Of a stretch of DNA of 64,000 bases, positions 44,270 to 60,534 are shown one piece after another (position 1 is the first letter of the stretch; every line of letters starts with the position of its first letter). The stretch comes from Candidatus Pampinifervens sinense (GTDB lineage: Bacteria; Aquificota; Aquificia; Aquificales; Aquificaceae): NCBI GenBank assembly GCA_037927135.1, contig JAXSPP010000008.1, forward strand, positions 19,281 through 83,280, written 5' to 3'. A program made the translations under genes and the position numbers. The notes under the pieces are model-generated. The model worked only from the letters and a program-made list of their open reading frames with translations, searched no databases and was not told the origin of the DNA.

Positions 44270-44657
44270 ACCTTTCTACTAGCTCAAGTAAAGTCCTAGC
44301 CCTTTCCTTTACCCTTTCCCATTCTTCTATCTCTTCCATAGTTTGGGCTGTAGCAAGCTTCTTTACCGCCTGATCAAAGAGTTCCTTTTCCTTTCCTGGA
44401 TCTATCTCCCCTATATTGTAAGCTTCCTCTGCAAGGATTATGACCTTTTCCGGTGTGACATCCACAAAGCCGTAGGTTACTGCAATGCCATTTTCCATCT
44501 TGCCATCAAAGTAGACAAGCCCAGGCTTTAGCATGGTCATGAGATACATATGCTTTTCCAAAACTCCTATCTCACCCTCTACAGTAGGTATGTTTACAGA
44601 ATTTACCTCTTTAGAAAAGTGCAGGCCCTTGGGCGTGACTATCTCCACCTTAATCAT
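44256..44657 (-). CDS. atpC: F0F1 ATP synthase epsilon subunit
   Basis: EIVTP, GEIGVLEKH, GFVDV, ILAEEA. Confidence 0.92.
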   Translation of the reverse strand: MIKVEIVTPKGLHFSKEVNSVNIPTVEGEIGVLEKHMYLMTMLKPGLVYFDGKMENGIAVTYGFVDVTPEKVIILAEEAYNIGEIDPGKEKELFDQAVKKLATAQTMEEIEEWERVKERARTLLELVERFGRV

Positions 44658-45088
44658 GGCTTTAAAATTATACCATCCTTTTTTCTGCTATCTCTAAAGA
44701 GCTCATGGCATGCCATACAACCCTGTATCATCCATATGTAGGTTTGAAAAGCTTGATCTCTCTTACCTTCCTTTACAAACTTTATGACCTCCTCTGCACC
44801 ACCATGGATTTGTCTTTCAAAGGTAGGCATAAATTTTATAAACTCTTCTCTCTTTGATGGGTCTACGTATTTTAAAGGTCCTCCCTTTGGTGTAGGATGC
44901 TCAGCTATCTCCTTAGCTCCCTCAATTATCAACCAATCGTTGTTTAAAAGAAAGCCTTGAAGCATCTTTATAGCCGACATGTTTACCATCTGCATCACCT
45001 GTTTAAAGGTGAGATTACTTTCTTGCGTATGCTCATGGGCAAAACCAAGACTAAGGCTTAAGGCAAGGGCAAATCCCACTTTTCTCAT
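44654..45088 (-). CDS. Periplasmic monoheme cytochrome c with C-terminal CxxCH (class II / cytochrome c'-like)
   Basis: Signal peptide, helical body, CMACH near the C-terminus. Confidence 0.75.
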   Translation of the reverse strand: MRKVGFALALSLSLGFAHEHTQESNLTFKQVMQMVNMSAIKMLQGFLLNNDWLIIEGAKEIAEHPTPKGGPLKYVDPSKREEFIKFMPTFERQIHGGAEEVIKFVKEGKRDQAFQTYIWMIQGCMACHELFRDSRKKDGIILKP

Positions 45089-45089
45089 A

Positions 45090-45581
45090 CTACAACCTCC
45101 TTATCTTTATCTTCCAGTAGCTACCTTCATAGGCCACATACTCCCATCCCACCTTTTTGGGAAAGGCCATACTCATCTGAAAGTAAAGGGGTAAGGGGTC
45201 GTGGTCGTTTATGATGAAAAAGGCTTCGCCTTTGGCGGTTTTGGAAAACCTTTCCATCACCAAAGGGTGCCTTCTGCCATGCTCTATACTTCTTAAATCA
45301 ATGGTTTCACCATCTTGAAGGCTTTCCCCTCCAAAGGCTATCTCATATATTTCTGCTTCGCCTTCACACATAAAGCCAAATAACTCAGCCCTCTTCACAT
45401 AAAAGACTGCAGGAGCCTCCACCCTATCAAACCTCTGTCCCAGTATGTACCTTCCCGAGCCCTTTGAAAGGATATAAACCCTCTCATAGCCTACCGCCGA
45501 GGGCATAAGGGTGTCTTTTAAAAGCCTTAGATAAACGCCATCTAAACTAAAGCCCTTTCCTACTTCGGGTATTACCAGCAT
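45090..45581 (-). CDS. Cupin-like + DUF2249 domain protein
   Basis: C-terminal IDLR...RH...INDHDPLPLYFQ...W.I.I DUF2249 pattern. Confidence 0.75.
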   Translation of the reverse strand: MLVIPEVGKGFSLDGVYLRLLKDTLMPSAVGYERVYILSKGSGRYILGQRFDRVEAPAVFYVKRAELFGFMCEGEAEIYEIAFGGESLQDGETIDLRSIEHGRRHPLVMERFSKTAKGEAFFIINDHDPLPLYFQMSMAFPKKVGWEYVAYEGSYWKIKIRRL

Positions 45582-45615
45582 GGTTTAGAATGTAGGTCTT
45601 AAGTTAAGTATGTAA

Positions 45616-45629
45616 ATGATTACAATCAT
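45616..45629 (-). promoter_or_regulatory. DNR/FNR-like palindrome ATGAT-N4-ATCAT
   Basis: ATGATTACAATCAT centred 41.5 bp upstream of ATG 45581; TACATT -10 lies 7 nt before that ATG. Confidence 0.6.
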
Positions 45630-45646
45630 AAGAGTTAGATATATAT

Positions 45647-47584
45647 TCACCTTAGAACTACAAAGCTCCCAGTAGCATCATCGTAAGTTATAAGCACGCT
45701 CTCTTTTGGTTTTTGGGGTGTTTCAAACTCAATTTCTTTCACCTTCTCCTTATGGGCTATCTCTTCCAACCTTAGCCTTAGTTTTTTCCCTTTGGGTTCT
45801 AAAAAGATCTCATCATAGACAAAGAGTGAAGCATCCTTTCTTAGACCCCTTGGATAAAAGGTCTTTGAGTAAATCGTCTTTCCTTCTGAGATTATTTCCA
45901 CCTTAATAGGTGACCTCTCCTTTGCTATAGCCAGCTGTGTTTGCATATGCTTTAGACCCTCTTTTTTAACCATGGCTTCCTTGACAGGAGAGGACCTATA
46001 CTTAAAGTTTAGAACCACTGCAGATTTGTGGGTAGGATAAAAGGACATCTTATAAGTTGTTAGAGGATAGAAAAGAAAAGTTGGTATGGTAAGGATAAGT
46101 GTGGCTACTACGTAGTTTGTCTTTTCTAAAGCTATTATCTTGGGTTCTTTACCAGTTTTTTCTTCCTTCATAAACTCATCCACTTCCTTTTCAATGGGTT
46201 TTACGTAAGGAGCCTCCAGTATAAGCACCTTTCCTCCCAACACCCTTTTCCTCAAGATAGGTCTTCTTTCCCTCTTGTACCTTTCCTCCAACCATTTGTT
46301 GCCTTCCCTAAAGTAGCAGTCCTCATACTCACAGGAAACTAGGATAAGGCCTTCCAATCCCATATCAAGTAGCTCCTCTGCATAGAGGGTATTTACAGCA
46401 CCTATACAAGGCACTGTAAAGGAAAGAAGCCCTTTTCTCTCAGGAAGCTGGGCGCTAAAAGGACATCTAAAGGCTAAGTAAGAGGGCTTTTCTTTCCTCA
46501 CCCTCTCTATTATTTCCACAATAGGAAAAGTGGGAATGTCTATACTTTTTACACTGCAAGACCCTACACATATACCACAGCCGGCACACTTTCCTTCATT
46601 CAAAACAGCCTTTTTATCTCCATCAAAGCTTCTCATGGTTATGGCCTCATAAGGACAGTCTATATAACACTGCTCACATCCAGTGCATCTTTCAAGGTTT
46701 ATTTGTGCGGGAGGGTTTCTCCTTCCCTTTATGAGCCATGGGAAAACAAAAAGGAAGGTGAAGAATCCTAAGAATAGGATCCAATTGGCAGACATGGGAA
46801 GGTATTTAAGAAGTGGATAGCCAAAGAAATAAAACCAGTCAAGGCTCATCTCAAAGGGTAGCTTTTCTATGTAGGCTGGTGGGTCACTCTTTGCGGGGAA
46901 AAGTATGGAGAGGGCTATAAGAAGTAAGGTTATGGTTATATAAAGGAACTTGGGAGGTATGAGCCTTGGCCTTGCATTTCTCATCACATGAATCCAAAGG
47001 GTAAAGACTATGAGAATGGTGAGGGCTATGTGGGCAAAGAGGAGTATTCTGAAGAGGCCACTCAGATACTTTACATCTTTGCCAAGGAAAGCACTCATAA
47101 GAACATCTCCAAAGACTGGTAGAAAAGAAAAGAACTTAGCAGTCAGTATTCCAAGGAGCTGTGCCTTTGTGTCCCAAACTAGGATATAACCAGAGATGCC
47201 TATGGCTAAAAAGATGAGTAAAGTAGCGATCCCTGTCACCCAAGCCACCCATCTAAAGAGTCTAAACCTATCTGTTATGATCACGTGAATCATATGAGCG
47301 ATAGTGGTAAGAATCAAGGCATCAGATGAGTACCTATGTATGCCTCTCATTATGTTTCCTAAAAAGCTGTGTGATATAGCTTCCACCGAAGCATAGGAAG
47401 ATTTTGGATCTATGCTGTAAAAAAGGAAGAGGTAAACACCAGAGATTACATCTATGACAAGAAGGAATACAGCTATAGCTCCAAGGTGGTAGAGTGGGTT
47501 TAGCCTGGAGGAAAAAAACTTGCTTAAGGTGTAGGAGATCTTTTGGAAGGCTATGTAAAAGGGTTGTATGCTTATCACTTCCAT
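45647..47584 (-). CDS. Cytochrome b / 2x[4Fe-4S] / MvhD-like [2Fe-2S] multidomain membrane protein
   Basis: Cytochrome b His pairs (RGIHRY...AHMIH; FAHIA...WIHV); CTGCEQCYIDCP and CAGCGICVGSC; MvhD-like FRC...VPCIG...SCEYEDCYF; further C-terminal TM plus soluble domain. Confidence 0.82.
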   Translation of the reverse strand: MEVISIQPFYIAFQKISYTLSKFFSSRLNPLYHLGAIAVFLLVIDVISGVYLFLFYSIDPKSSYASVEAISHSFLGNIMRGIHRYSSDALILTTIAHMIHVIITDRFRLFRWVAWVTGIATLLIFLAIGISGYILVWDTKAQLLGILTAKFFSFLPVFGDVLMSAFLGKDVKYLSGLFRILLFAHIALTILIVFTLWIHVMRNARPRLIPPKFLYITITLLLIALSILFPAKSDPPAYIEKLPFEMSLDWFYFFGYPLLKYLPMSANWILFLGFFTFLFVFPWLIKGRRNPPAQINLERCTGCEQCYIDCPYEAITMRSFDGDKKAVLNEGKCAGCGICVGSCSVKSIDIPTFPIVEIIERVRKEKPSYLAFRCPFSAQLPERKGLLSFTVPCIGAVNTLYAEELLDMGLEGLILVSCEYEDCYFREGNKWLEERYKRERRPILRKRVLGGKVLILEAPYVKPIEKEVDEFMKEEKTGKEPKIIALEKTNYVVATLILTIPTFLFYPLTTYKMSFYPTHKSAVVLNFKYRSSPVKEAMVKKEGLKHMQTQLAIAKERSPIKVEIISEGKTIYSKTFYPRGLRKDASLFVYDEIFLEPKGKKLRLRLEEIAHKEKVKEIEFETPQKPKESVLITYDDATGSFVVLR

Positions 47585-47596
47585 CCTTTACCTCCT

Positions 47597-47614
47597 TGTA
47601 AATACATACTTACT
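47597..47614. promoter_or_regulatory. Operator-like palindrome copy (TGTAAAT-N4-ACTTACT)
   Basis: Immediately upstream of the AGGAGG SD of the cytochrome b fusion gene; matches copies at 47721 and 52130. Confidence 0.55.
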
Positions 47615-47685
47615 TTATTAATATAAGCCCTTTATTAAAATCTTATAGATTTTAATTTCACGTTATAATATGATAAATTAAATTC

Positions 47686-47741
47686 TTGACAATAATACCA
47701 TTTTATTTTAAACTTAATCCTGTAAGTAATCACTTACAGGA
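47686..47741 (+). promoter_or_regulatory. Sigma70-type promoter with overlapping perfect palindrome
   Basis: TTGACA(47686)-N17-TAAACT(47709); TCCTGTAAGT-AATC-ACTTACAGGA (47718-47741) covers the predicted +1 and the start of the SD. Confidence 0.7.
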
Positions 47742-47749
47742 GGTAGAAC

Positions 47750-47926
47750 ATGGAGGAGAAAAAAAAGACTCCTTTCCTTCAGCTGGTCATGGACGATTTT
47801 ATGCTTCTCTTCCTCATAGGGGTTACCATCTATGCCGTCTTTTACCTTATCTGGGGCCTTATGGAACTGGCATGGCTCTCGCCCATACCGGAGGAGTTAA
47901 AAGCATCACTTTTGGGAGGTAAGTGA
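47750..47926 (+). CDS. 58-aa single-TM small subunit of the heme-copper operon (subunit IIa-like)
   Basis: Below ORF cutoff; AGGAGG SD; MEEKKKTPFLQLVMDDFMLLFLIGVTIYAVFYLIWGLMELAWLSPIPEELKASLLGGK; stop 1 nt before subunit II ATG. Confidence 0.8.
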   Translation: MEEKKKTPFLQLVMDDFMLLFLIGVTIYAVFYLIWGLMELAWLSPIPEELKASLLGGK

Positions 47927-47927
47927 C

Positions 47928-48458
47928 ATGAGCCTGCTACCACCTGAAGAAGGATGGTACTTTAAGAAGGTAGCAAAGGATGAGAAGATGTGGATAGCCC
48001 TTGCCTTAGTGGTATGCCTTATCCTCTTTTTCTGGATGATTGTCTGGCACATCTACGGAAAGCAAAACCCCTCCTTTACCACCTACAGAACAACTCCTCA
48101 GGAGTTTAACGCTCTGGCTACAGCCTTTATAGAAAAGTACAAAGTAGGTGAGATGAACGGAATACCTGTGGTTGAACCGCCACCCAACAGCGATGTTTTC
48201 CTTGTGGCCAAGATGTGGAGATGGGAGCCCGTTTTGGTGCTCAAAAAGGGCCAAGAGTACAGGTTCCACATATCTTCTTTAGATCTCTTACATGGCTTTT
48301 CTTTGCAACCTGTCAACATGAACTTTATGGTCTATCCGGGATATGACTATGTGCTTACCTTTAGGCCTACCTCTGCTGGGGAGTTTGCCATAGTGTGCAA
48401 TGAGTTTTGCGGTATAGGACATCACATGATGATAGGAAAGATCATAGTCAAAGAATAA
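47928..48458 (+). CDS. Heme-copper oxidoreductase subunit II with CuA site
   Basis: Single TM; DLLHGF and CNEFCGIGHHMM CuA ligands (B-family-like architecture). Confidence 0.9.
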   Translation: MSLLPPEEGWYFKKVAKDEKMWIALALVVCLILFFWMIVWHIYGKQNPSFTTYRTTPQEFNALATAFIEKYKVGEMNGIPVVEPPPNSDVFLVAKMWRWEPVLVLKKGQEYRFHISSLDLLHGFSLQPVNMNFMVYPGYDYVLTFRPTSAGEFAIVCNEFCGIGHHMMIGKIIVKE

Positions 48459-48469
48459 GGAGGTAAGCC

Positions 48470-50137
48470 ATGTTTAGGATGTGTGATATTACAGGCCTAA
48501 AGGTGGACTTAAATGCCGAAAAGCTTATAAAGCTTAACGCTGTTATGGCCGTTGTCTCCCTTCTTATCGGTGTGATCGGAGCCCTCCTTTTGGTGCTCAC
48601 AAGATGGCAGGTGGTGCATCTTTTGCCGGTGGATTGGTACTATAGAGTGCTCACCCTTCATGGCCTCAACGCCTTAATATTCTGGATAGTCTTCTTTGAG
48701 ATAGCAGGCCTCTACTTTGGTTCTACCATAGTGCTAAACTCTAGGATGTCTTCACCAAAGCTTGGATGGTTTGCCTTCATCCTTATGGTCCTAGGCTTTC
48801 TCCTTGTCAACTACACCATACTGACTGGAAAGGCTGACGTTTTGATGACCTCTTACGCTCCTTTGCAGGCACACCCAGTTTATTATCTAGGCATTATCCT
48901 TTTTGCAGTTGGTGCCCTCATAGGTGTTCTTCTTTTCTTTGCAAACCTTATGATAGCTAGGAAAGAAGGGACATATGGAGATTCCCTACCTCTGTTTACT
49001 TACGGTCTTATGGCAGCTGCCATAATAGCCTTTATAACCCTTGCCACTGGCGCCATAATATATATTCCCACCTTCCTTTGGTCTTTGGGAATCATAAAGA
49101 GCATAGATGCGGGTGTTTATAAGCTCGTCTGGTGGGGTTTTGGACATTCCTCACAGCAGATAAATGTAACGGCTATGATAGCCGTGTGGTATCTTGGAGC
49201 TTTTCTTACGGTTGGTGGTACATCCATCAATGAAAAGGTAAGCAGGATAGCCTTTCTCCTTTACATTATAGGTATAAACGTAGCTTCAGCACATCATCTT
49301 TTAGTAGACCCAGGGCCTAGCCCCGTTTGGAAAGTCTTTAACACAAGCTACATCATGTACTTGGCAGTCCTTGCCTCTATGATACATGCCTTTGCTGTTC
49401 CATCCGCCATTGAATCGGCCCAAAGGAGAAGAGGCTTTACAAAGGGTCTTTTTGACTGGCTCAAAAACGCTCCATGGGGCAACCCAGCCTTTTCGGCCAC
49501 ATTCCTTTCTATCATCATCTTTGGCTTTATAGGTGGTATAACGGGTGTAGTAAACGGTATGGAACAAACCAACATAATAGCCCACAATACCCTTTCCATA
49601 CCAGGACACTTTAAAGGAACTGTGGTGGGTGGAACTACCTTAGCCTTCATGGGTATTACCTACTACCTTATACCCCTTGTGTTTAGAAAGCGCATCTCCT
49701 TCTTTGGTCTTGCCAAGCTACAGCCTTGGGTTTTTGGCATAGGGATAGCCATATTGGCTGTATCCATGTACATACTTGGAGCCTTTGGTGTTCCAAGAAG
49801 ACACTACGATATTACCTTCTCCGGAGGACCCTTTACCTATACTTTTAACCCAGCTACAGACTTCTTCTGGGCCCTCTTTGCCATAGGTGGCCTAATGGCT
49901 GTTATAGGTGCCTTAATGTGGATACTTATAGTGGTCTTTTCTGTCTTCTTTGGTGCTCCTTTGAGAGGTCCTCAGGATATGCAACTTCAAATAGCCTCAC
50001 CCCCACCACCAGCCAAAGAAAACCATGGCTTTGAAGCTCCAGGAACTCTTGCCCTTACCCTTCTCTTCATGGCCACCTTCATCATATTCCTACTTCTCAA
50101 CTGGGGATGGCTCGCAGCCATGTGGGAGGTAAGGTAA
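48470..50137 (+). CDS. Heme-copper superfamily subunit I, eNOR-like (putative nitric oxide reductase)
   Basis: H64 (LHG); helix VI GH226SSQQ230 with Gln where O2 reductases have the cross-linked Tyr; H275H276; helix X GH380FK382; PRR loop. Confidence 0.8.
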   Translation: MFRMCDITGLKVDLNAEKLIKLNAVMAVVSLLIGVIGALLLVLTRWQVVHLLPVDWYYRVLTLHGLNALIFWIVFFEIAGLYFGSTIVLNSRMSSPKLGWFAFILMVLGFLLVNYTILTGKADVLMTSYAPLQAHPVYYLGIILFAVGALIGVLLFFANLMIARKEGTYGDSLPLFTYGLMAAAIIAFITLATGAIIYIPTFLWSLGIIKSIDAGVYKLVWWGFGHSSQQINVTAMIAVWYLGAFLTVGGTSINEKVSRIAFLLYIIGINVASAHHLLVDPGPSPVWKVFNTSYIMYLAVLASMIHAFAVPSAIESAQRRRGFTKGLFDWLKNAPWGNPAFSATFLSIIIFGFIGGITGVVNGMEQTNIIAHNTLSIPGHFKGTVVGGTTLAFMGITYYLIPLVFRKRISFFGLAKLQPWVFGIGIAILAVSMYILGAFGVPRRHYDITFSGGPFTYTFNPATDFFWALFAIGGLMAVIGALMWILIVVFSVFFGAPLRGPQDMQLQIASPPPPAKENHGFEAPGTLALTLLFMATFIIFLLLNWGWLAAMWEVR

Positions 50138-51399
50138 TGCTCTTCTTCCTCTCCCTTTCTCTCTTTTCACTCCTTCTTGCTGGCATCTTCGGGCTCCTCA
50201 TAGCCCTCACAAGGGCTCCCCTCTTTAAACTCCTTGATTCACCCCTTCTCTTTTACCACTTTTTAGTGGGCCATGTGACCTTTTCTATTACAGTCTGGCT
50301 TATGACCTTTGGTATGGCCTTTTGGCACTACAAGGAGGGCAGGAAGGGGAAGGTAGCACCTCCAGCCACCCTACTCGGTATGCTTTTCCTTTCCCTCTCC
50401 TGCCTTTTTCCCTATGGACAGCCCCAACTCAACAATTATATACCAGTCATAGAGAATCCTATCTTCTACGCAGGCCTTACTCTTTTCTTCTTGGGCTTTT
50501 CTTCAGAGGTACTTTTTAGACTACCGAAAGCTGTAAAAAGCCTTTTGACCCAAGATACACAAACACAACTACTGTCCTTATCCATTATCTTTGGCCTTTT
50601 GACAGTGCTGTCCCTTCTTCTATCCTTGCTCCTTGTAAAAGGTGAAGGAAAGCTCTACTTTGAAAGGCTCTTTTGGATACCTGGACACCTTCAGCAGTTT
50701 ATGTACACAGCCCTTATGCTATGCGTATGGCATGAGCTATTGAAGAAAAACTCCGGAGTGCAAATATCAAGCCCCATTATAAGCTCAGCAAACCTCTTTA
50801 TGCTCCTTTTCTCCTTGACCCTCTTTTATGGCTACCTTACAGATATGCTCTCCCATGGCTTTAGGCTTCTTGTGGTCCTCTCCTTTGGAATAGGCTTGGG
50901 TGTGCCCGTCTTTGTACACACCTTCTATGTGCTAAGGAATATGAGGATAAACAAGGATGTGTCTACCTTGTCCTTGGTCTCTTCCATGCTTGTGTACTAT
51001 GTAGGCGAGTTTATAGCCTACGGTGGGATGCAGAGCGACCTTAGAATACCGGCCCATTATCATGGTGTAGTTTCCGGAGTAACCATAGCCTTTATGGGCC
51101 TTACCTACTATATGCTAAAGGAAAGGCTTGGTTTTGTAAGCTGGGAGAAGTTTGCCAAGCTTCAGCCTGTCATATTTGGTCTTGGTATAAACCTTTTGGT
51201 GATAGGTTTTTACATTGCTGGCCTTTTGGGAGCACCAAGAAAAACTTATGGCTTTGAGTATGTGCAAAAGGCTGAGGTACTTCTTGCTTTGAACGTGATG
51301 GGTATGGGAAGCTTGCTCGCCGTAGCTGGCGGACTTCTCTTCCTCTTTTACTCCCTTGCATCCCTTCTGAGGGTATACAAACATGGTAAAGGTTCTTAG
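50137..51399 (+). CDS. Degenerate heme-copper subunit-I paralogue (polytopic membrane protein)
   Basis: VGHVTFS, FWIPGHLQQF, IPAHYHG, GAPRK; no HH motif; ATG 50137 overlaps the upstream TAA. Confidence 0.72.
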   Translation: MLFFLSLSLFSLLLAGIFGLLIALTRAPLFKLLDSPLLFYHFLVGHVTFSITVWLMTFGMAFWHYKEGRKGKVAPPATLLGMLFLSLSCLFPYGQPQLNNYIPVIENPIFYAGLTLFFLGFSSEVLFRLPKAVKSLLTQDTQTQLLSLSIIFGLLTVLSLLLSLLLVKGEGKLYFERLFWIPGHLQQFMYTALMLCVWHELLKKNSGVQISSPIISSANLFMLLFSLTLFYGYLTDMLSHGFRLLVVLSFGIGLGVPVFVHTFYVLRNMRINKDVSTLSLVSSMLVYYVGEFIAYGGMQSDLRIPAHYHGVVSGVTIAFMGLTYYMLKERLGFVSWEKFAKLQPVIFGLGINLLVIGFYIAGLLGAPRKTYGFEYVQKAEVLLALNVMGMGSLLAVAGGLLFLFYSLASLLRVYKHGKGS

Positions 51400-52114: not shown

Positions 52115-52121
52115 AAAAATC

Positions 52122-52171
52122 TTGACATTTGTAAATAAACACTTATAATTATAAATATGACATAAATCATA
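52122..52171 (+). promoter_or_regulatory. nirS promoter with two operator-like palindromes
   Basis: TTGACA(52122)-N16-TATAAT(52144); TGTAAAT-AAAC-ACTTATA (52130-52147); TATGAC-ATAA-ATCATA (52156-52171) over +1. Confidence 0.7.
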
Positions 52172-52186
52172 CAAGGAGGTGTGGAC

Positions 52187-53836
52187 ATGAAAAAGTACCT
52201 GCTTAGTGGGATCTTTGGAATGGCAACAGTCTTTGGCCTTTTCACTGTGGTGCCTTCCTTGGCGCAGCAAAAGGAGGATCTCCCCGCCCTCTCTCAAGAG
52301 GAGATGAAGAGAGCAGCCCAGATCTACTTTGACAGGTGTGCTGGATGCCATGGAACTCTTAGAAAAGGTGCCACTGGACCAAACCTATTGCCCGAAAAGA
52401 CAAGGAAGATGGGTGTGGAGACGCTCAAAACCTTTATAACCTATGGAACGCCCGGTGGTATGCCAGACTGGGGAAGGCAGGGATTGCTTAGCCCTCAGGA
52501 GATTGAGCTTTTGGCCAAGTTTTTACTCCATGAGCCACCACCCCCACCAGAGATGTCCTTGGAAGACATGAAGAAGCATTGGAAGGTGTATGTTCCACCG
52601 GAAAAGAGGCCAAAAAAACCCGAACACAACAGAAACTGGCAGAACTTTATGGCTGTCATACTTAGAGATGCTGGAAAGGTTGCCATAATTGACGGTGATA
52701 CAAAGGAACTCGTGAACATAGTGGACACTGGCTTTGCAGTCCATATAGTAAGGTATTCAGCCTCCGGTCGTTATCTGTACACCATAGGAAGGGATGGAAA
52801 GGCTACAATAGTGGACCTGTGGATGAAAAAGCCAGATACGGTTGCTGAAGTAAAAGCATGCTATGACGCAAGGTCTATAGACTCATCCAAATACAAAGGT
52901 CCAAAGGGAGACTTTCTAGATAAGTATGCCATCATAGGATGCTATTGGCCTCCTCATATGGTAATACTGGACGGGCAAACTTTGGAACCTCTAAAGATAA
53001 TTTCAACGAGCTCTTATACCTATGATACTAATGAGTTTGTAAGGGAGGCAAGGGTAGCATCCATAGTGGCTTCCCACCATGACCCAGAGTGGGTGGTAAA
53101 CATAAAGGAGGCTGGACAGATATGGCTTGTGGACTACTCTAACATACGCGCCCCTAGGATAACCATGATAGAGGCAGAGAGGTTCCTACACGATGGCGGT
53201 TGGGATGCCTCAAAGAGATACTTCTTGGTTGCTGCAAACTTCAGAGACACCATATCCATAGTGGATACTAAGGAAAAGAAGCTTGTCAAGAATGTAAAGG
53301 TGGGCAGAATACCACACCCAGGAAGGGGTGCCAACATAGACCATCCCAAGTATGGACCCATATGGTGCACAGGACACCTTGGAGACAACACCATCCAATG
53401 CATTGGCACAGACCCCGTCAGGTATCCCCAGTATGCCTTTAAGGTAGTTGCCAAGTTTGAAATGCCCGGTGAGGGTGGAGGAAACCTATTTATAAAGACT
53501 CATCCCAAATCCCCCCATATTTGGGTAGACAGGCCTCTAAATAACGACCCTAAACTGCAAAGGTCTATCTTTGTCTTTGACAAATACACCTTTAAGCTAA
53601 AGGCTCAGATAGAGATACCAGAAAAGTATGCTGGAAGGGCTGTCCATCTTGAGTACAACAAGAACGGTGATGAAGTGTGGGTCTCTGTTTGGGGTAAAAA
53701 GAACGAGCCACACAAACAAGCCATACTTGTTTACGATGACAAAACCCTAAAGCTCAAGCATGAGATCACAGGAGACTGGGTGGTAACTCCCACTGGACAC
53801 TTCAACGTCTACAACACCATGAAGGACATCTACTGA
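52187..53836 (+). CDS. nirS: Cytochrome cd1 nitrite reductase
   Basis: Signal peptide; CAGCHGTLRKGATG heme c; GFAVH, FLHDGG, PHPGRG, LFIKTHP, TGHFNVYNT; AAGGAGG SD fits ATG 52187. Confidence 0.96.
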   Translation: MKKYLLSGIFGMATVFGLFTVVPSLAQQKEDLPALSQEEMKRAAQIYFDRCAGCHGTLRKGATGPNLLPEKTRKMGVETLKTFITYGTPGGMPDWGRQGLLSPQEIELLAKFLLHEPPPPPEMSLEDMKKHWKVYVPPEKRPKKPEHNRNWQNFMAVILRDAGKVAIIDGDTKELVNIVDTGFAVHIVRYSASGRYLYTIGRDGKATIVDLWMKKPDTVAEVKACYDARSIDSSKYKGPKGDFLDKYAIIGCYWPPHMVILDGQTLEPLKIISTSSYTYDTNEFVREARVASIVASHHDPEWVVNIKEAGQIWLVDYSNIRAPRITMIEAERFLHDGGWDASKRYFLVAANFRDTISIVDTKEKKLVKNVKVGRIPHPGRGANIDHPKYGPIWCTGHLGDNTIQCIGTDPVRYPQYAFKVVAKFEMPGEGGGNLFIKTHPKSPHIWVDRPLNNDPKLQRSIFVFDKYTFKLKAQIEIPEKYAGRAVHLEYNKNGDEVWVSVWGKKNEPHKQAILVYDDKTLKLKHEITGDWVVTPTGHFNVYNTMKDIY

Positions 53837-55449
53837 TGAGATACCTACTTCTTCCCCTACTCCTCCTTTCCCTTTCCTTTGGGGTAGGGGAGGGGCTTTA
53901 TCAAAAGTATTGTTCTTCTTGTCATGGTGAAGACAGGCTTGGGAGGGGTGCACCTCTCCTCTTTCCCCCCTTTTTTATACCAAAGTCTGAAGAAAGAATA
54001 TACCAGGTGATAAAAAAGGGCACCATTGGAATGCCAAGCTTTGAGCATCTAAAAGAAGATGAGATAAGGGCCATAGTTGAGTTTATAAAAGGGCCTGTGG
54101 ATGAAAATAAGTTAAGGTGGAGCAGAGAAGACATAGAGAAGAGCCAAAGCCTATCTCATGTGGAAAAGGTAAGGATAAACAACCTGAGGGGCCTTACTGT
54201 AATGGTGGAGAGGGGGAAAGGTCTCCTTTGGGTGATGGAGGGCTTGGAGGTCCTCAGCAAGGTCCCTGTATCTTACGTGCATGGTGGGGTAAAGTTTTCT
54301 AAGGATGGAGAAGTTTACATACCGTCAAGAAGTGGATGGATAAGCAAGTACTCGCCGGAGAAGGGAGAGATAAAAAAGGTAAGAGCCTGTATATACCTGA
54401 GGAACATAGCTCTCTCTTCTGATGGGAAAGTTCTTGTAGCCTCTTGCTGGCTTCCTCCCTCCCTGGTCTTTTTTGACAAGGACCTAAGACTTATACAGAT
54501 AAAAGAGGTAAAAGGCAAGATAAACGCAGTTTATGAGCTTCGCAACGGCAAAGGCTTTATCTTTACCTTCAGAGACAGGCCCTATGTGGGTCTTTTGAAC
54601 AAGAATGGAAGAATAACCTACAAAGAGCTAGATATCAGCTTGGAAGACTTTACCATAGACCCCCTTGAAGAGTACCTTATAGGTAGCACAAAAGACGGCC
54701 TAAGGATATACTCTTTGAAGGACCTAAAGCTTGTAAAGGAGCTAAAGGCCCTTGGCCTTCCTCACCTTGCTTCTTCCTACTTTTGGTACTCAAAGGGTGA
54801 GTTTTACTTTGCCACCCCACTCCTTGGAAAGCCCCTCCTGTCTATATGGAAGGCTTATAAATGGGAGCATGTAAAGGACATTCCTCTCAAAAGCTTTGGC
54901 TTTTTGGCAAGAAGCAACTATGGCACACCTTATGTATGGGTGGATGAATCCTCGGACACCTTGGCCCTTTTGGACAAAAGAAGCTTAGAGCTAATAAGAA
55001 TAAGGCCAGTGGAAGGCAAAAGGGCTACGCATACAGAGTTTTCCTCAGATGGCAGGCTTGCCTACGTGAGCCTTGAGGATGCTTTAATAATCTATGATGG
55101 AGTGAGCCTCAAAAAGCTAAGAGAATTCCCTGCAAGTATGCCCGCTGGAAAGTATAACTTCTTTAACAAAAGTAGAATCTTTGAAGCTTCCCAGCTTGGC
55201 CATCAGGTTTTTATGGAAAAGTGTTGGGGATGCCACCATACCACAGAGCAAGCCTTTGGACCTCCACTAAAAGGGTCTGCCAAGAAAAGGGATAAGGCCC
55301 TCATAATGGCCCAGATACTTGACCCGCAGAATACCCATAAGCTCTTGGGATATTCAAGGAACGTCATGCCACGTATAGACCTAAGAGAAGAGGAGCTAAA
55401 GGCCCTCATAAGCTTTATGGAGGCGTTAAAGGATGGCTGGATGGATTGA
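53836..55449 (+). CDS. nirN: NirN-like dihydro-heme d1 dehydrogenase with extra C-terminal cytochrome c domain
   Basis: N-terminal CSSCHGEDRLG, HGGVKFS, GLPHL, THTEFS, PAGKYN; second CWGCH...MP domain at the C-terminus. Confidence 0.8.
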   Translation: MRYLLLPLLLLSLSFGVGEGLYQKYCSSCHGEDRLGRGAPLLFPPFFIPKSEERIYQVIKKGTIGMPSFEHLKEDEIRAIVEFIKGPVDENKLRWSREDIEKSQSLSHVEKVRINNLRGLTVMVERGKGLLWVMEGLEVLSKVPVSYVHGGVKFSKDGEVYIPSRSGWISKYSPEKGEIKKVRACIYLRNIALSSDGKVLVASCWLPPSLVFFDKDLRLIQIKEVKGKINAVYELRNGKGFIFTFRDRPYVGLLNKNGRITYKELDISLEDFTIDPLEEYLIGSTKDGLRIYSLKDLKLVKELKALGLPHLASSYFWYSKGEFYFATPLLGKPLLSIWKAYKWEHVKDIPLKSFGFLARSNYGTPYVWVDESSDTLALLDKRSLELIRIRPVEGKRATHTEFSSDGRLAYVSLEDALIIYDGVSLKKLREFPASMPAGKYNFFNKSRIFEASQLGHQVFMEKCWGCHHTTEQAFGPPLKGSAKKRDKALIMAQILDPQNTHKLLGYSRNVMPRIDLREEELKALISFMEALKDGWMD

Positions 55450-55921
55450 AAGCATATCAAAGATAAGGAGGCCCCATTTGGGTGAGGATGTGCCAGTGTT
55501 GGTGTTTAGAGCCTTTAGGGTATTCACGGGCATGTATTTGGAGGATACGGTGGGCCATAAGGGAGCTATAACCCTTGTGCAGAACGCAGGAAGAGAGTTT
55601 GGAAAAGAGGTGGGCAAAAGGCTAAGACATGAGGATTTAGACAAATACATCATGAATGTGGCGGACTTTGTCAAAGACCTACGAGTGGGCCTCTTAATAC
55701 CAATTGAAAGGAGTGAGGAGAGGATCGTGGTAGCTCTTGATGAGTGTATTACATGCTCCGGCATGCCAAACATAGGAAAGAAGATATGCCACTTTGAGGC
55801 TGGCTTTGTGGCTGGTATAGTGGAAAGCTACCTAAACAAAAGGGTAAGGGTTTATGAAAGCAAGTGCAACGCCCATGGAGACAACGTATGCGAAGTGGTG
55901 GTGGAGCTCAACTATGCTTAG
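55433..55921 (+). CDS. Stand-alone V4R domain protein
   Basis: ECITCSG...ICHFEAGFVAG...ESKC...GD..CE V4R pattern. Confidence 0.8.
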   Translation: MAGWIESISKIRRPHLGEDVPVLVFRAFRVFTGMYLEDTVGHKGAITLVQNAGREFGKEVGKRLRHEDLDKYIMNVADFVKDLRVGLLIPIERSEERIVVALDECITCSGMPNIGKKICHFEAGFVAGIVESYLNKRVRVYESKCNAHGDNVCEVVVELNYA

Positions 55922-57002
55922 GATGACGGAGTACTTAAGGGAAGTGTTGGAAGGGAAAAAGGTAAAAGCTTTTGGAGACAGTGTTATACTCATATGGAAC
56001 CTCACCAACAGATGCAACCTCTACTGCAAGCACTGCTATTCCTCTGCAAAGGACATAAGGTCCTATGAGCTCACTTCAGAAGAGGCAACAAACCTTGTAA
56101 AAAGGCTACCCCATATCAAGGTAAAGTTTGCTATCCTCTCCGGCGGTGAGCCTCTGTTAAGGGAGGACCTCTTTCACATAGCAAAACTTTTAAGAGAGCA
56201 AGGCATAAGGACCTACCTTTCTACCAACGGCCTACTTGTTAGAGAGTTTATAAGGGATATAAAAGAGCATTTTGATTATGTTGGGATAAGCATAGACGGA
56301 GAGCCACAGGTCCATGACCTCTTTAGGGGCAAGAGAGGCGCCTTTGAAGAGTCTCTTAATGCCATAAGGCTATGCCTTGAGGAGGGCATAAGGGTTGGAC
56401 TTCGCTTTACCCTCGCTCCCCAAACGGTCAAGAGTCTGCCCTTCATATTCAACCTTGTAGAAAGGGAAGGTATTCCCAAGATTTACATATCTCACCTTGT
56501 CTACTCTGGAAGGGCCAAAAGGCTAACGGACCTGGAAAAGAAGGAGTACAGAAAGGTTGTCAAGTTTATAATTGACAAGGCCTTTGAGTATGTGGAAAGG
56601 GGAATACCCATAGACATAGTCACCGGAAACAACGAGGCGGATGCAGTCCTTCTATATGAAGAATTTTCTAAAAGGTATGCAGACCTATCTGACAGGCTTT
56701 ATGAGAGGCTCTTGCTTTGGGGAGGAAACCAGGCGGGCGTGAGGCTCATAAACATAGACCACCTTGGAAGTGTAAAGCCAGACCCCTTCTTCTTCCACAG
56801 CGTAGGCAATGTGAGGGATGAGGACCTTGTGAAGATATGGCAGGGTAATGGACTACTTAGCTTTCTAAGAGAGAGGCCAAGGAGGCTAAAGGGAAGGTGC
56901 GGAGGATGTAAATACATAGACATATGCAACGGGAACTCAAGGGCAAGGGCCTACGCGGTCCTTGGCGACTGCAGGGAGGAGGATCCAGCATGCTACTTAT
57001 AG
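55914..57002 (+). CDS. nirJ: Heme d1 biosynthesis radical SAM protein
   Basis: WNLTNRCNLYCKHCY, SGGEPL, ISHLVYSGR, GNNEADA, SPASM Cys cluster; ATG 55914. Confidence 0.88.
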   Translation: MLRMTEYLREVLEGKKVKAFGDSVILIWNLTNRCNLYCKHCYSSAKDIRSYELTSEEATNLVKRLPHIKVKFAILSGGEPLLREDLFHIAKLLREQGIRTYLSTNGLLVREFIRDIKEHFDYVGISIDGEPQVHDLFRGKRGAFEESLNAIRLCLEEGIRVGLRFTLAPQTVKSLPFIFNLVEREGIPKIYISHLVYSGRAKRLTDLEKKEYRKVVKFIIDKAFEYVERGIPIDIVTGNNEADAVLLYEEFSKRYADLSDRLYERLLLWGGNQAGVRLINIDHLGSVKPDPFFFHSVGNVRDEDLVKIWQGNGLLSFLRERPRRLKGRCGGCKYIDICNGNSRARAYAVLGDCREEDPACYL

Positions 57003-58024
57003 TGCTTTTGCTCCTGCCAATCTTTGCCTTCTGTGAAAAGCTCTATGTGGTAGAGAGGGAAAGGGGAAAATTGGCGGTTATAGAGGATGGGAGGCTGAAG
57101 GGTGAGATAGGGGGGCTTGGAAATCTAAACCATGCAACGGTGAAGTTTTACAAGGGTTTTGCCTATGTGATAAGCAGGGATGGCTTCCTTTCAAAGATAG
57201 ACCCAGGGGAGGACAAGCTTGTAAAAAGGGTAAAGGTGGGCAACAGCGGTATAGGCCTTGACTTCTTCAAAGGGTATGTGCTTGTGGCCAACTATGACCC
57301 GGATAGTGTGGTGCTATTGGATATGGACCTAAACCTTGTTAAAACCATAAAAACAGACTCAAGGAATGTGGGTATAAAGGCTTACTCTTCTGGCTTTGTT
57401 TTTGCCCTCATGGACAGGGATGAGGTGTGGGTTGTGGAGGGAGAAAAGATAAAAAGGTTAAAGGATGTTGGGAAGATGCCCTTTGATGCTTTGCTATACG
57501 AAGATAAATACCTTGTGGGCTTTTTTGGAGAGCCCTCCCTTGGCATCTTAGACTTAAAGAAAGGTGAATACAAAAAGATAGCTCTAAGTTCTAACGGAGA
57601 GGCTGTTTTTAAGATACCTCACTTTGGCACATGGGGTGTGGTGGATGGAATGGCCTATGTGCCGGCGGTGGGAGAAAGGAAGCTATACCTATTGAACTTA
57701 AAAGAACTAAGGCTGGAGGGAAGTATAGACCTTCCTGGCCTTCCAGTATTTGTAGTGGCTTCTCCCGACAAAAGGCTTTTGGTCGTCAACTTCAGCGGTG
57801 ATAGGGAAGACTACATAGCCCTTGTGGATGTATCCGAAAGAAAGGTGATAAGGGAGGTAAAGGCTGGCAAAAGGATAATGCATATGCGCTTTTCCAAGGA
57901 TGGCAAAAGGCTATATATCTCTTCCTACTTTGATTCTAAGCTAAGGGTTTTGAGCCTTCCAGACCTAAGGCCTATTCAAGAAGTGGATGTCCCAAACCCA
58001 TCGGGCATTTTTGTTTTGCCATAG
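56990..58024 (+). CDS. nirF: Heme d1 biosynthesis beta-propeller protein
   Basis: VVERE, LNHA, SRDG, MPFDA, KIPH, GLPVF, HMRF, PSGIF; ATG 56990. Confidence 0.85.
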   Translation: MLLIVLLLLPIFAFCEKLYVVERERGKLAVIEDGRLKGEIGGLGNLNHATVKFYKGFAYVISRDGFLSKIDPGEDKLVKRVKVGNSGIGLDFFKGYVLVANYDPDSVVLLDMDLNLVKTIKTDSRNVGIKAYSSGFVFALMDRDEVWVVEGEKIKRLKDVGKMPFDALLYEDKYLVGFFGEPSLGILDLKKGEYKKIALSSNGEAVFKIPHFGTWGVVDGMAYVPAVGERKLYLLNLKELRLEGSIDLPGLPVFVVASPDKRLLVVNFSGDREDYIALVDVSERKVIREVKAGKRIMHMRFSKDGKRLYISSYFDSKLRVLSLPDLRPIQEVDVPNPSGIFVLP

Positions 58025-58034
58025 GAGGTGTGCT

Positions 58035-58787
58035 ATGGGTAAAGTATACCTTGTGGGCGCAGGACCGGGAGACCCAGAGCTTTTAACGCTAAAAGCTTTG
58101 AGATTAATAAAGTCCGCAGACGTTATCCTCTACGACAGGCTCATAAACCAAGAGATACTTCTTTTTGCCAAGCCAGACTGTGAGCTTATCTATGTAGGAA
58201 AAGAAGATGGAAAACATACCATAGAACAAGAGAAGATAAACGAGCTTTTGCTTGAGTATGCTCACACAAAGGAAGTGGTGGTAAGGCTAAAAGGAGGAGA
58301 CCCCTTCATCTTTGGAAGGGGAGGAGAAGAGGCCCTCTTTTTGGCAGAGCATGGCATAGAGTTTGAAGTAGTTCCGGGAGTGAGTTCCTTTTATTCAGTG
58401 CCAGCCTATGCTGGCATACCGATAACCTTCAGAGGCATATCTTCATCCTTTGCCGTAATAACGGGACATGAGGACCCAAGAAAGGAAAAATCAAGCATAG
58501 ATTGGGAGAGTCTAAAAGGTATAAACACCTTGATAGTTCTAATGGGGGTCTCAAGGAGGAAGGAGATAGCCAGAAAGCTAATAGAGGTAGGAAGAGATCC
58601 AAAGGAGCCTGTGGCCTTTATAGAGAATGGTACCACAGAGAGGCAGAGGGTGATTCTAACAGACCTTTATGAGCTTTCCACAAACCCGCCTGAGGTAAAC
58701 CCACCTGCCATAATGGTGGTGGGAAGTGTGGTAAGGCTCAAAGAAAAGCTCTCTTGGTATGAGGCTACCTTACATAACACTCCTTGA
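58035..58787 (+). CDS. nirE: Uroporphyrinogen-III C-methyltransferase
   Basis: VGAGPGDPELLT, RLKGGDPFIFGRGGEE; position in the nir operon; ATG 58035. Confidence 0.9.
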   Translation: MGKVYLVGAGPGDPELLTLKALRLIKSADVILYDRLINQEILLFAKPDCELIYVGKEDGKHTIEQEKINELLLEYAHTKEVVVRLKGGDPFIFGRGGEEALFLAEHGIEFEVVPGVSSFYSVPAYAGIPITFRGISSSFAVITGHEDPRKEKSSIDWESLKGINTLIVLMGVSRRKEIARKLIEVGRDPKEPVAFIENGTTERQRVILTDLYELSTNPPEVNPPAIMVVGSVVRLKEKLSWYEATLHNTP

Positions 58788-59442
58788 CATACTCCTTTAG
58801 CCTATTTGCTAAACTCTTTAGCTCCTCTTCTGTGTAAGTAGTTTTATGCCTGTAGCTTGGGTCTAAGGTTTTTCTTGGGTTGAACCTCTGAAGATAATAC
58901 CTTTTTGCCCCTTTTATAAGGCTTCCAACCTGAAGAAGGTCTTCCTCTGAAAGAAGCTCCTTCACCACAGTGGTCCTAAACTCATAATCTTTTGCCCTCT
59001 CCATTATAAGCCTTATACTCTCTTCTATCCTTTTCACATCCACCTTTGCCCTTACCACCTCTTCATACTTATAAAGGGGTGCCTTTACGTCCATGGCCAC
59101 ATAATCCAAAAGGTCTATTATCCTCTCAAGAGGCTGTGGATTGTGGCCGTTGGTGTCTAGCTTTACAAGATAGCCCATATCCTTTATCCTTTTTATAAAG
59201 TCTTCCAAATCCCTTTGAATAGTTGGCTCTCCACCGCTTATGACCACACCCTCCAACATTCCCCTTCTTTTCCAAAGGAAAGAAATTATCTCCTCTTGAG
59301 GAATACTTTTAGCTGTGCATAGAACAAGCTCAGGATTTTGACAGTAAGGGCACCTAAAATCACATCCTTGAGTAAAAACTATGCAGGCCATCCTGTTAGG
59401 ATAGTCTATCAGGGTAAAGCTTTGAAAGCCCCCTATGTTCAT
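58765..59442 (-). CDS. Anaerobic ribonucleoside-triphosphate reductase activating-like radical SAM protein
   Basis: IDYP, GCDFRCPYCQN, SGGEPT, KLDTNG, EFRTT. Confidence 0.8.
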   Translation of the reverse strand: MNIGGFQSFTLIDYPNRMACIVFTQGCDFRCPYCQNPELVLCTAKSIPQEEIISFLWKRRGMLEGVVISGGEPTIQRDLEDFIKRIKDMGYLVKLDTNGHNPQPLERIIDLLDYVAMDVKAPLYKYEEVVRAKVDVKRIEESIRLIMERAKDYEFRTTVVKELLSEEDLLQVGSLIKGAKRYYLQRFNPRKTLDPSYRHKTTYTEEELKSLANRLKEYVKECYVR

Positions 59443-60435
59443 CTAAACCATCCTCTCATACCATCTGTAAAATTCTTCTGAGAAGTAGCTTATCCTCTTC
59501 TTTTTGAACTCTCTTGTGGAGAAAAGAAGTGCATAGTCCTTTAGGCCAAACCCTTGGCTTATGCTTTTTACAAACCTTTTTACCTCTTCCTCCTCTTTTC
59601 CATGTATCATTGCAAAGAGGTTATAATCCCAGCCAAACCTCTCATAGCAATGGGACACACTCTTAAAGCCTGCCAAATATCTGCCTACCTCTTCTATCAT
59701 ATCTTCTTTGACCTTCCAAACTGTCATGGCGTTGGCACTAAATCCTACCCTTCTGTGATAAAGGATGGCGCTTATTCTCCTTAGAATACCCCTTTCTTTG
59801 AACTCCAATAGCTTTTCAATAAGCTCATCCTCTTTCATATTTAGCCTTTTGGCATAATAATCAAAAGGCCTGCTTACCAAGGGCATATCCTCCTGCGTAA
59901 TTCTTACTATGAGTTTTTCTTCCTCAGTTAAAGGTCTATAGTCATAATTTTTTAGGCTTACCTCCTCCCTTTCCATGAGGGATTCATAGCTCAGCCTCAC
60001 CCCTATCTTAAAGACCCTTTTGGCCCTGAGTATCTTATAATCCAAAGCATCTACCTTCTCAGCCATATACCTTACCGTGTCTTCTAGGCTCACACCCACA
60101 TCAGGGGGTACCGCTATGGTAAACCACAGGTTGAACTCATGTGTTCTTTCATAGTTATGGCTCACTCCAGGATGGGTGTTTATAAAGGATGCGGCCTCTT
60201 CTATGCGTTCAGGCTTTACCTTAAAGGCAACCAAAGAAGAATCATAGCCCAGCATCCTTGTATCGTATATAGGTGCTATCTGCCTTACAACCTTATCTTC
60301 TTTAAGCCTTTCTATGGCTTTTATAACCTCATCCTCTCCTATGCCAAGCCTTTCGCCTATCTCCAAAAAGGGCCTTTTTACAATAGGGATCTCCTCTTGA
60401 AGGGTTTTTAGAAGACCCTCAAGGCTCTCTATCAT
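59443..60435 (-). CDS. nirDL: Fused siroheme decarboxylase NirDL (AhbA/AhbB-like)
   Basis: Two Lrp/AsnC-like repeats: GVSHNYER...FNLWF and HRRVGFSANAM...VSHCYER. Confidence 0.88.
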   Translation of the reverse strand: MIESLEGLLKTLQEEIPIVKRPFLEIGERLGIGEDEVIKAIERLKEDKVVRQIAPIYDTRMLGYDSSLVAFKVKPERIEEAASFINTHPGVSHNYERTHEFNLWFTIAVPPDVGVSLEDTVRYMAEKVDALDYKILRAKRVFKIGVRLSYESLMEREEVSLKNYDYRPLTEEEKLIVRITQEDMPLVSRPFDYYAKRLNMKEDELIEKLLEFKERGILRRISAILYHRRVGFSANAMTVWKVKEDMIEEVGRYLAGFKSVSHCYERFGWDYNLFAMIHGKEEEEVKRFVKSISQGFGLKDYALLFSTREFKKKRISYFSEEFYRWYERMV

Positions 60436-60469
60436 ATTTTAACTATAATATCATCAAATCACTTTATAC

Positions 60470-60483
60470 CTGATATATATCAT
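60470..60483 (-). promoter_or_regulatory. DNR/FNR-like palindrome upstream of nirDL
   Basis: Minus strand ATGATATATATCAG centred 41.5 bp upstream of ATG 60435; TATAGT -10 lies 6 nt before the ATG. Confidence 0.6.
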
Positions 60484-60534
60484 ATTTTAATGGGACAATC
60501 ATAAGGTATATGGGCCCACAACCCACCAAAATCC

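Follow-up and report, generated by a model that had tools for sequence, protein, structure and literature searches.

The window analysed here is a 64,000-nucleotide stretch of the genome of Candidatus Pampinifervens sinense, a member of the Aquificaceae (assembly GCA_037927135.1, contig JAXSPP010000008.1, positions 19,281 to 83,280). It carries a denitrification island in which nirS, the gene for a cytochrome cd1 nitrite reductase, lies behind an operon for a haem-copper enzyme; outside this island, the window consists of housekeeping genes. Genes were called from a listing of open reading frames (ORFs) together with Pfam and NCBIfam scans of the window, and all the genes mapped by an earlier reading of the same DNA (the first-pass annotation) were found in their places. 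On the plus strand, a small gene for a 58-aa peptide with a single transmembrane (TM) helix, conserved 5' of subunit II (47750-47926), is followed by the genes for the CuA-bearing subunit II (47928-48458; one TM helix and a cupredoxin domain) and subunit I (48470-50137; PF00115, E 7.6e-68), a COX1-like paralogue of 420-430 aa that matches PF00115 weakly (50107-51399; E 4.7e-19), and a copper chaperone of the SCO1/SenC type whose TM anchor is C-terminal (51383-52114). nirS comes next on the same strand (52181-53836; PF02239, E 1.9e-128, plus a cytochrome c domain), with the ATG at 52187 as its likely start codon. Divergent from the operon, on the minus strand, domain scans revealed a 645-aa fusion of a cytochrome b, two [4Fe-4S] motifs and an FlpD(MvhD)-like domain (45647-47584).

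By its sequence, subunit I next to nirS is a member of the described eNOR family of nitric oxide (NO) reductases. We assign it there because of a Gln aligned with a Tyr of the ba3 oxidase, the residues of a K-type proton channel, the CuA ligands of its partner subunit and 90% identity to a protein already listed as ENOR. The best solved match of subunit I is subunit I of the Thermus thermophilus ba3 oxidase (E 5e-48), and in that alignment Q230, part of a GHSSQQ motif, occupies the position of the cross-linked Y237 of ba3; this Gln is invariant in 17/17 aligned sequences. According to a table in PMC8756737, the residue at the Tyr position is N in sNOR, Q in eNOR and D in gNOR. Subunit I also has Y241 (11 residues after the Gln), S303, H306, H226, H275, H276, H64 and H380. 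Q230, Y241 and S303-x-x-H306 of subunit I, together with E19 of subunit II, are all five invariant in alignments of 17 sequences, and were matched by spacing and motif, rather than by a direct alignment, to Q245, Y256, S318, H321 and E(II)21 of the R. marinus eNOR (Dataset S1 of PMC11214002). Subunit II resembles its ba3 counterpart (E 2e-16) and has a complete set of CuA ligands (H122, C157, E159, C161, H165 and M168), of which H122, C157, C161, H165 and M168 align with the CuA ligands of ba3. WP_012962803.1, which Murali et al. 2024 (PMC11214002) enter as ENOR in their Dataset S4, is the H. thermophilus orthologue and is 90% identical to the window's subunit I. The eNOR family was named in 2008, and its R. 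marinus member, which was purified as two subunits, is reported in PMC11214002 and its preprint to reduce NO and not O2. Haem As at both haem sites is a further defining trait of the family. The first-pass annotation had been right that an altered subunit I adjoins nirS, since the catalytic Tyr is replaced by Gln and the gene is the genome's sole candidate for an NO reductase of the haem-copper oxidase (HCO) type; the idea of a module outside all described families was not supported.

The window enzyme shares with the eNOR family the Gln at the Tyr position, the Ser/His/Tyr pattern of the K-channel, the N-terminal Glu of subunit II and the CuA site, but differs in having a Lys, K382, where the ba3 alignment places the second helix-X haem His. 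His/Lys ligation is ascribed to "some eNORs" in PMC11214002. The T. thermophilus ba3 oxidase is thus the best solved match of both subunits, from which the window enzyme differs by its want of the cross-linked Tyr. In the window, subunit II has one TM helix and a gene for a small TM peptide lies 5' of it; ba3 possesses a subunit IIa. The 58-aa peptide has seven invariant residues (D15, L20, G24, Y32, W35, G36 and E39), and its gene was found in 36/79 metagenome loci. Against PDB sequences, it gave only a chance-level match (E 0.84).

Other classes of the superfamily did not fit. sNOR (bNOR) was considered because a norSY-senC-orf1 cluster exists in ammonia oxidisers, and was ruled out by the Gln, rather than Asn, at the Tyr position. 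gNOR has one CuB/FeB His replaced by Asp and a subunit II that lacks CuA ligands, whereas H226, H275 and H276 are all present here and the CuA ligands are complete. cNOR and qNOR share with the window enzyme the predicted reaction and the pairing with NirS; however, the latter is derived from the B-family, has CuA, is without the Glu of the helix-VI HLWVE motif and is without NorC, and the genome holds no detectable homologue of NorB or NorC. As for the O2 reductases of the B-family, their helix-VI cross-link Tyr is not found in the window protein when it is aligned with ba3.

The first-pass annotation had noted that no norB or norC occurs in the window and had proposed searching the rest of the genome for norCB or qnor; nothing was found there either. 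The assembly comprises 1.55 Mb in 12 contigs and is 99.96% complete. A PF00115 search of the whole genome returned six HCO genes (two of the A-family, one of the B-family, the eNOR and two short paralogues), none of them of the NorB or qNOR type, and NorB and NorC of the closest relative, G015, gave a best E of about 1 when run against it by tblastn. The same PF00115 search returned a seventh gene in G015 and in another relative, G016; in G015 it is part of a norCB pair whose NorB has the HLWVE motif and whose NorC has CMDCH. The eNOR is therefore the only HCO-type NO reductase of the window's genome, whereas these two relatives carry norCB as well. Likewise, nosZ, nosB-like, nosL, nosD and nosY of the relatives found no match in the window's genome, and models of NarG and NapA gave matches far below their cut-offs only. 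On contig C1, at about 84.5-90.4 kb (L228 2522-8395), we observed an operon of the type II dimethyl sulphoxide (DMSO) reductase family, with genes for an alpha subunit of 1078 aa, a beta subunit, a haem b gamma subunit and a chaperone, all of which score under the curated cut-offs. It could encode a nitrate reductase of periplasmic type or another oxyanion reductase, which bears on where nitrite comes from. ctaA and ctaB are both encoded in the genome, and so is a canonical cytochrome b that adjoins a Rieske gene. Two Rieske matches were obtained in total, on contigs C1 and C4; the second Rieske-domain gene, at C1:192627-195564, adjoins a 904-aa molybdopterin oxidoreductase frame, a pair that looks arsenite-oxidase-like by its arrangement.

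Comparison with relatives suggested how the island came to be without nos genes. eNOR was found in 22/151 sampled Aquificota genomes, from 3/34 genera, in 7/24 genomes of the same genus and in 0/16 genomes of two sister families. In three Aquificaceae genera, eNOR and nirS share one island. All seven same-genus carriers have the gene order nosZ, nosB-like, nosL, nosD, nosF, nosY, cytochrome c, cytochrome b fusion, eNOR operon, nirS operon. In G015, a 6.6-kb block (cytochrome c, nosY, nosF, nosD, nosL, nosB-like and nosZ) stands where the window has 12 bp (45631-45642): by blastn, 44666-45630 and 45643-48000 of the window match two stretches that lie 6.6 kb apart in that relative. The site of the missing block is flanked exactly by the DUF2249 gene on one side and the cytochrome b fusion on the other, and the simplest reading of these alignments is that the window's lineage cleanly lost its nos genes. 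Pampinifervens, the genus name on the protein record of one relative, has been reported to encode full denitrification.

At the centre of the genes that accompany eNOR stands the fusion, in which a dihaem cytochrome b of the bc1 type is joined to two [4Fe-4S] motifs and a four-Cys MvhD/FlpD-like domain; one more TM helix and an all-beta domain form its C-terminal part. We collected 487 homologues at E <= 1e-5, and the architecture of about 645 aa is found in Aquificota, Nitrospirota and Bacteroidota; in shorter forms, the C-terminal TM-plus-beta module is split off as a separate gene. The four His that would bind haem (H83, H97, H185 and H199) are invariant, as are the eight Cys of the two [4Fe-4S] motifs and the four of the MvhD-like domain. 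An AlphaFold2 (AF2) model has a mean confidence (pLDDT) of 75.8; about 290-350 columns of it can be superposed on cytochrome b of bc1 (E ~1.5e-5, TM-score to the target 0.5-0.56). These four His and the overlap of the model are what the protein has in common with cytochrome b of bc1/b6f complexes. It differs from them in its fused Fe-S, MvhD-like, TM and beta parts and in the genes around it, as neither a Rieske nor a cytochrome c1 gene occurs in the window cluster, so that the partner expected of a bc1/b6f cytochrome b is missing there.

The neighbourhood and co-occurrence analysis that the first-pass annotation had proposed bore out a link between the accessory genes and eNOR. An eNOR-type subunit I adjoins the fusion in 47/79 metagenome loci, and in 36/40 of those with at least 4.5 kb of upstream sequence, a count that began from homologues of the fusion and not from every eNOR subunit I. 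The usual order there is peptide, subunit II, subunit I, (ctaB), SCO, fusion. GHxxQQ and the Tyr at +11 are present in 42/43 of the adjoining subunit I ORFs longer than 300 aa, the exception being a truncated ORF. Among 151 Aquificota genomes, which are kin from a single phylum and for which co-occurrence is given without statistics, 21 have both eNOR and fusion, one has eNOR only (at a contig edge), two have the fusion alone, in one case as a fragment, and neither gene is found in 127; the fusion is thus present in 23/151 genomes and in 21/22 of the eNOR-positive ones. Some eNOR clusters contain an additional paralogue (L171 6436-8382, L179 3371-5359) in which cytochrome b is combined with a plant-type 2Fe-2S domain, an FAD-binding and an NAD-binding domain. 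In another locus, an 887-aa ORF (L182 26-2689) fuses SCO to the cytochrome b/Fe-S protein.

A comparable operon is described for Ferrigenium straubiae (bioRxiv 10.64898/2026.01.22.701106), with genes for eNOR II, eNOR I, sco1, a haem o synthase and two cytochrome b/[Fe-S] proteins, besides one described there as a "scaffold protein of unknown function"; one of the two cytochrome b/[Fe-S] proteins corresponds to the 2Fe-2S/FAD/NAD paralogue of L171 and L179. Its authors call the cytochrome b/[Fe-S] genes "rather unusual", propose a quinol:NAD+ oxidoreductase supercomplex, and report detection of these proteins in the proteome under denitrifying growth. The window operon resembles that of Ferrigenium in eNOR II, eNOR I, sco1 and cytochrome b/[Fe-S] genes, but is without ctaB and without the FAD/NAD-bearing paralogue; and the genes judged unusual in Ferrigenium are companions of eNOR in 36 of the 40 testable metagenome loci. 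Our literature search found no paper that names the fusion as a general eNOR partner; the supporting information of PMC11214002, the Ferrigenium supplements and Palmer et al. 2025 lay beyond what it covered, and may show some linkage. When the eNOR core (subunits I and II with the peptide) was modelled with residues 485-645 of the fusion, the complex scored 0.48 (best of three controls, 0.00). The mark for support is reached by 58/80 solved complexes and 2/110 mismatched pairs, but with scores at or below 0.60 by only 7 of the 80 and by both mismatches. At least 88% of contacts were shared between runs, and the pLDDT of the partner was at least 73. The prediction lends weak support to a contact between the fusion and the eNOR core.

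For the COX1-like paralogue, 314 homologues were found. The haem ligands of helices II and X are kept, and the helix-VI His (H184) is the only one of the CuB/FeB positions to be invariant; since conservation does not extend to the pair of His in helix VII, a CuB/FeB site with three His is unexpected. Of 80 loci of this family, 10 lie in eNOR operons, 62 directly behind ctaA/ctaB (26 of these with an A-family oxidase), and 8 have too little flank. A second copy is present in the window's genome (443 aa; contig C1:220111-223179, L015 8112-11180), directly 3' of ctaA (COX15) and ctaB (a UbiA-type haem O synthase). ctaA itself is contained in many eNOR operons according to PMC11214002. In P0031 and P0043, one of them from a Cytophagaceae metagenome-assembled genome, the paralogue is fused to SCO in a protein of 672-674 aa. 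A look-up in the Protein Atlas returned only unnamed clusters with a COX1 domain. Because the family stands behind ctaA-ctaB elsewhere, the paralogue is probably an assembly or haem-handling factor rather than a second catalytic subunit.

Two more genes, both on the minus strand, lie at the end of the island beyond the fusion. The first-pass annotation had spoken of cytochrome c'-like genes in the plural, and one such gene was found (44654-45088). It encodes a 144-aa class II cytochrome c with a signal peptide and a C-terminal CxxCH (C124, C127 and H128). The protein itself matched nothing in Pfam or among PDB sequences; 35 of its 50 aligned homologues match PF01322, and the CxxCH at 124-128 is invariant. 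Its AF2 model is a helical bundle (pLDDT 89.5) whose top Foldseek matches are cytochromes c', the best with E 9e-3 and none at or below 1e-3. Taken together, the protein is a periplasmic class II (c'-type) cytochrome c with a four-helix bundle, and with its invariant Met32 it may be six-coordinate and carry electrons, unlike a c' that binds NO. The neighbouring gene (45090-45581) codes for 163 aa, of which residues 93-162 at the C-terminus form a DUF2249 domain (E 1.6e-21). In Thermus, such a protein (DrpA) has been tied to the control of denitrification, and DUF2249 genes are reported to be induced in Haloferax. Like DrpA of T. thermophilus and the DUF2249 genes of Haloferax mediterranei, the window gene belongs to a denitrification cluster; it differs from DrpA in an extra N-terminal part of 90 residues, in its partner, which is a c'-type cytochrome and not DrpB, and in its position near nos/nor and not nar. 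Both genes are located just beyond nosZ in 7/7 relatives, and the adjacent pair also occurs in a genome of another family. The idea that they are foreign to the island, to which their absence from the first 8-10 kb of the relatives' flanks had given rise, was rejected on account of that location.

The results above establish to which family the enzyme belongs, which genes are present and that the accessory genes occur together with eNOR; beyond this, we consider it likely that the locus as a whole is a truncated denitrification island, in which nirS and eNOR act together and nitrous oxide (N2O) is the predicted end product. NirS would reduce nitrite to NO, with haem d1 made by nirE, nirDL, nirJ, nirF and nirN; the two-subunit, CuA-bearing eNOR with its 58-aa peptide would then reduce NO to N2O, its substrate protons probably coming from the cytoplasm via the K-type channel. 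N2O is the predicted end product because norCB, qNOR and a nos cluster are all missing. SCO would load CuA, and the handling of haem a/o or the assembly of the HCO would fall to the COX1-like paralogue. The DUF2249 protein and its c'-type cytochrome neighbour, a pair tied to the island, would serve to carry electrons or to sense. The fusion would be a dedicated partner of eNOR that wires a dihaem membrane module with a quinol site to Fe-S clusters in the cytoplasm.

A more far-reaching proposal, which we think improbable, is that eNOR and the Rieske-less fusion make up a single supercomplex in which the two electrons of quinol take separate routes. It is suggested also by the FAD/NAD-bearing paralogue in other eNOR clusters and by the proposal made for Ferrigenium. 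The high potential of NO reduction would, on an equally slender chance, draw one electron to CuA and drive the second through the two b haems to the cytoplasmic Fe-S clusters, whence it would reach ferredoxin or NAD(P)+. If so, NO respiration would directly supply low-potential reductant, for instance for the reverse tricarboxylic acid cycle of the Aquificaceae, and the near-obligate linkage would make electron splitting general to eNOR and not an oddity of Ferrigenium.

The accessory genes could instead form a maturation machine that stands outside the working respiratory chain, comprising the fusion, SCO, the paralogue and, elsewhere, CtaB. The fusion would move cytoplasmic electrons to the periplasmic face, where they keep the thiols or the copper of SCO reduced or aid modification of haem a/o, and the paralogue would hold haem; we regard this as possible, though rather unlikely. 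It is in keeping with the grouping of the accessory genes after the structural ones, often with ctaB between them, with the fusions of SCO to the paralogue (P0031 and P0043) and to the cytochrome b protein (L182), with the position of the paralogue behind ctaA-ctaB in 62/80 loci and in the window's own genome, and with the two-subunit composition of the R. marinus enzyme as purified (PMC11214002). A bc1-like dihaem cytochrome b with three Fe-S sites is, however, elaborate for a chaperone, and some eNOR clusters hold a cytochrome b paralogue fused to 2Fe-2S, FAD and NAD domains. The appearance of the Ferrigenium proteins in the proteome of denitrifying cells (bioRxiv 10.64898/2026.01.22.701106) and the weakly supported contact of the fusion with the eNOR core also speak for a part in respiration.

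Two further explanations would each surprise us greatly. Atypical nos clusters are known to carry cytochrome b and Fe-S genes, and the fusion might on that pattern serve N2O reductase and not eNOR; it does abut the nosY-cytochrome c end of the nos cluster in 7/7 same-genus relatives and in L016-L022 and L034. Yet it has been kept in the window although nos is gone, most metagenome loci have it co-directional behind eNOR and SCO, and it tracks eNOR in 21/22 eNOR-positive genomes. None of the metagenome loci has a gene whose best match is NosZ, and a generic nosF-like gene (ABC ATPase) occurs in three only. It is just as hard to believe that the haem-copper enzyme works as a specialised B-family enzyme on O2, reducing or scavenging it, and that NO is removed by another enzyme, even though its closest solved relative is the ba3 oxidase, public records call it a cytochrome c oxidase, and eNOR expression is reported to require microoxic conditions (PMC11214002 or its preprint). 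Where O2 reduction requires a Tyr, the enzyme has an invariant Gln, the characterised eNOR does not reduce O2 (PMC11214002), and the gene shares an island with nirS in three Aquificaceae genera.

Several points weigh against the truncated-island reading itself. NO reduction and N2O release are predictions from the genes, and the replacement of a haem ligand by K382 is unusual, with the same Lys in 11/43 of the subunit I genes that adjoin the fusion. A role in maturation fits the fusion, SCO, ctaB and the paralogue as well as a catalytic one, since their genes form clusters and are fused to one another in places; and because the genome has a canonical cytochrome b/Rieske pair, the fusion is not needed merely for oxidation of quinol toward cytochrome c. 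The self-contained quinol-to-NO-reduction system that the first-pass annotation had seen in the block stays a proposal. The search for NO reductases covered the HCO superfamily, with flavodiiron proteins, Hcp and globins outside its scope. Nitrite may come from an external source or from an unassigned enzyme of the type II DMSO reductase family. Finally, a contig piece from another metagenome run stops at 45628, at the nos junction, which none of the pieces compared spans independently; strains with and without nos may coexist there.

Read as eNOR, the enzyme would make this organism a predicted net source of N2O in hot springs. Because it is annotated as cytochrome c oxidase in public records, such genomes are scored as lacking NO reduction. 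Relatives with nos and the window with 12 bp in its place offer a natural pair for the effects of losing N2O reduction. The eNOR family, the listing of the H. thermophilus protein, the link between DUF2249 and denitrification, and the Ferrigenium operon with sco1, haem o synthase and cytochrome b/[Fe-S] genes are already in print. Specific to the window are the combined absence of norCB and nos, the clean nos junction and a clear view of the conserved eNOR accessory set. What print has not settled is that the fusion, SCO, the small peptide and often the paralogue travel with eNOR across phyla, and these are obvious candidates for its physiological electron route and energy yield.

The promoters of the island were said by the first-pass annotation to be tied together by shared palindromes. 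The palindromes are real and stand before the DUF2249, nirS and nirDL genes; no single element is shared by all, and the eNOR promoter has a half-box only. A TGAY-N4-ATCA box lies 5' of the DUF2249 gene (ATGATTACAATCAT, 45616-45629, 35-48 nt from the start codon) and of nirS (ATGACATAAATCAT, 52157-52170), and a TGAT-N4-ATCA box 5' of nirDL (TGATATATATCA, 60471-60482, 36-47 nt from the start codon). The stricter pattern, ATGAYNNNNATCAT, has 3 matches against 0.20 expected, which amount to two sites because the palindromic site at 45616 is counted on both strands; the looser one, TGATNNNNATCA, has 3 matches against 1.01 expected, one of them within an unrelated gene. Both the eNOR and the nirS operon have sigma-70-like -35 and -10 hexamers on the plus strand. 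In the nirS promoter (52122-52170), TTGACA (52122-52127) and TATAAT (52144-52149) are followed by the box, which sits between the -10 and the ribosome-binding site and is conserved among relatives. In the eNOR promoter region (47670-47714), the half-box ATGATAAATT stands beside the -35 TTGACA (47686-47691), with TAAACT (47709-47714) as -10; half-box and -35 are kept in the window and in 7/7 aligned relatives. Downstream, a hairpin with 10-bp arms, CCTGTAAGTAATCACTTACAGG (47719-47740), has its 3' end within the Shine-Dalgarno sequence that precedes the gene for the 58-aa peptide. Of the seven relatives, L096 alone shares this hairpin with the window, in a less perfect form. Other parts of the genome hold genes for two CRP/FNR-type regulators. 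Over 44200-60600, two metatranscriptome runs yielded 0 reads or contigs and are not informative on expression.

Behind nirS, domain scans placed the haem d1 genes nirN-like, V4R, nirJ, nirF-like and nirE/cobA on the plus strand (53836-58787), the nirN-like product being a 537-aa protein with two cytochrome c domains. They are met from the other side, on the minus strand, by genes for an nrdG-like radical SAM activase (58765-59442) and a nirDL (AhbA/AhbB-like) sirohaem decarboxylase fusion (59443-60435). The activase gene thus sits between nirE and nirDL, in a window without a gene for anaerobic ribonucleotide reductase. The V4R protein encoded inside the nir operon (162 aa, 55433-55921) resembles the C-terminal part of MsvR and is without a helix-turn-helix domain. 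Outside the window, its gene was found in L096, L097, L098 and L101, which represent four of the seven relatives of the same genus, and in L016, L017, L022 and L034, whereas L099, L100, L102, L018, L020 and L021 lack it.

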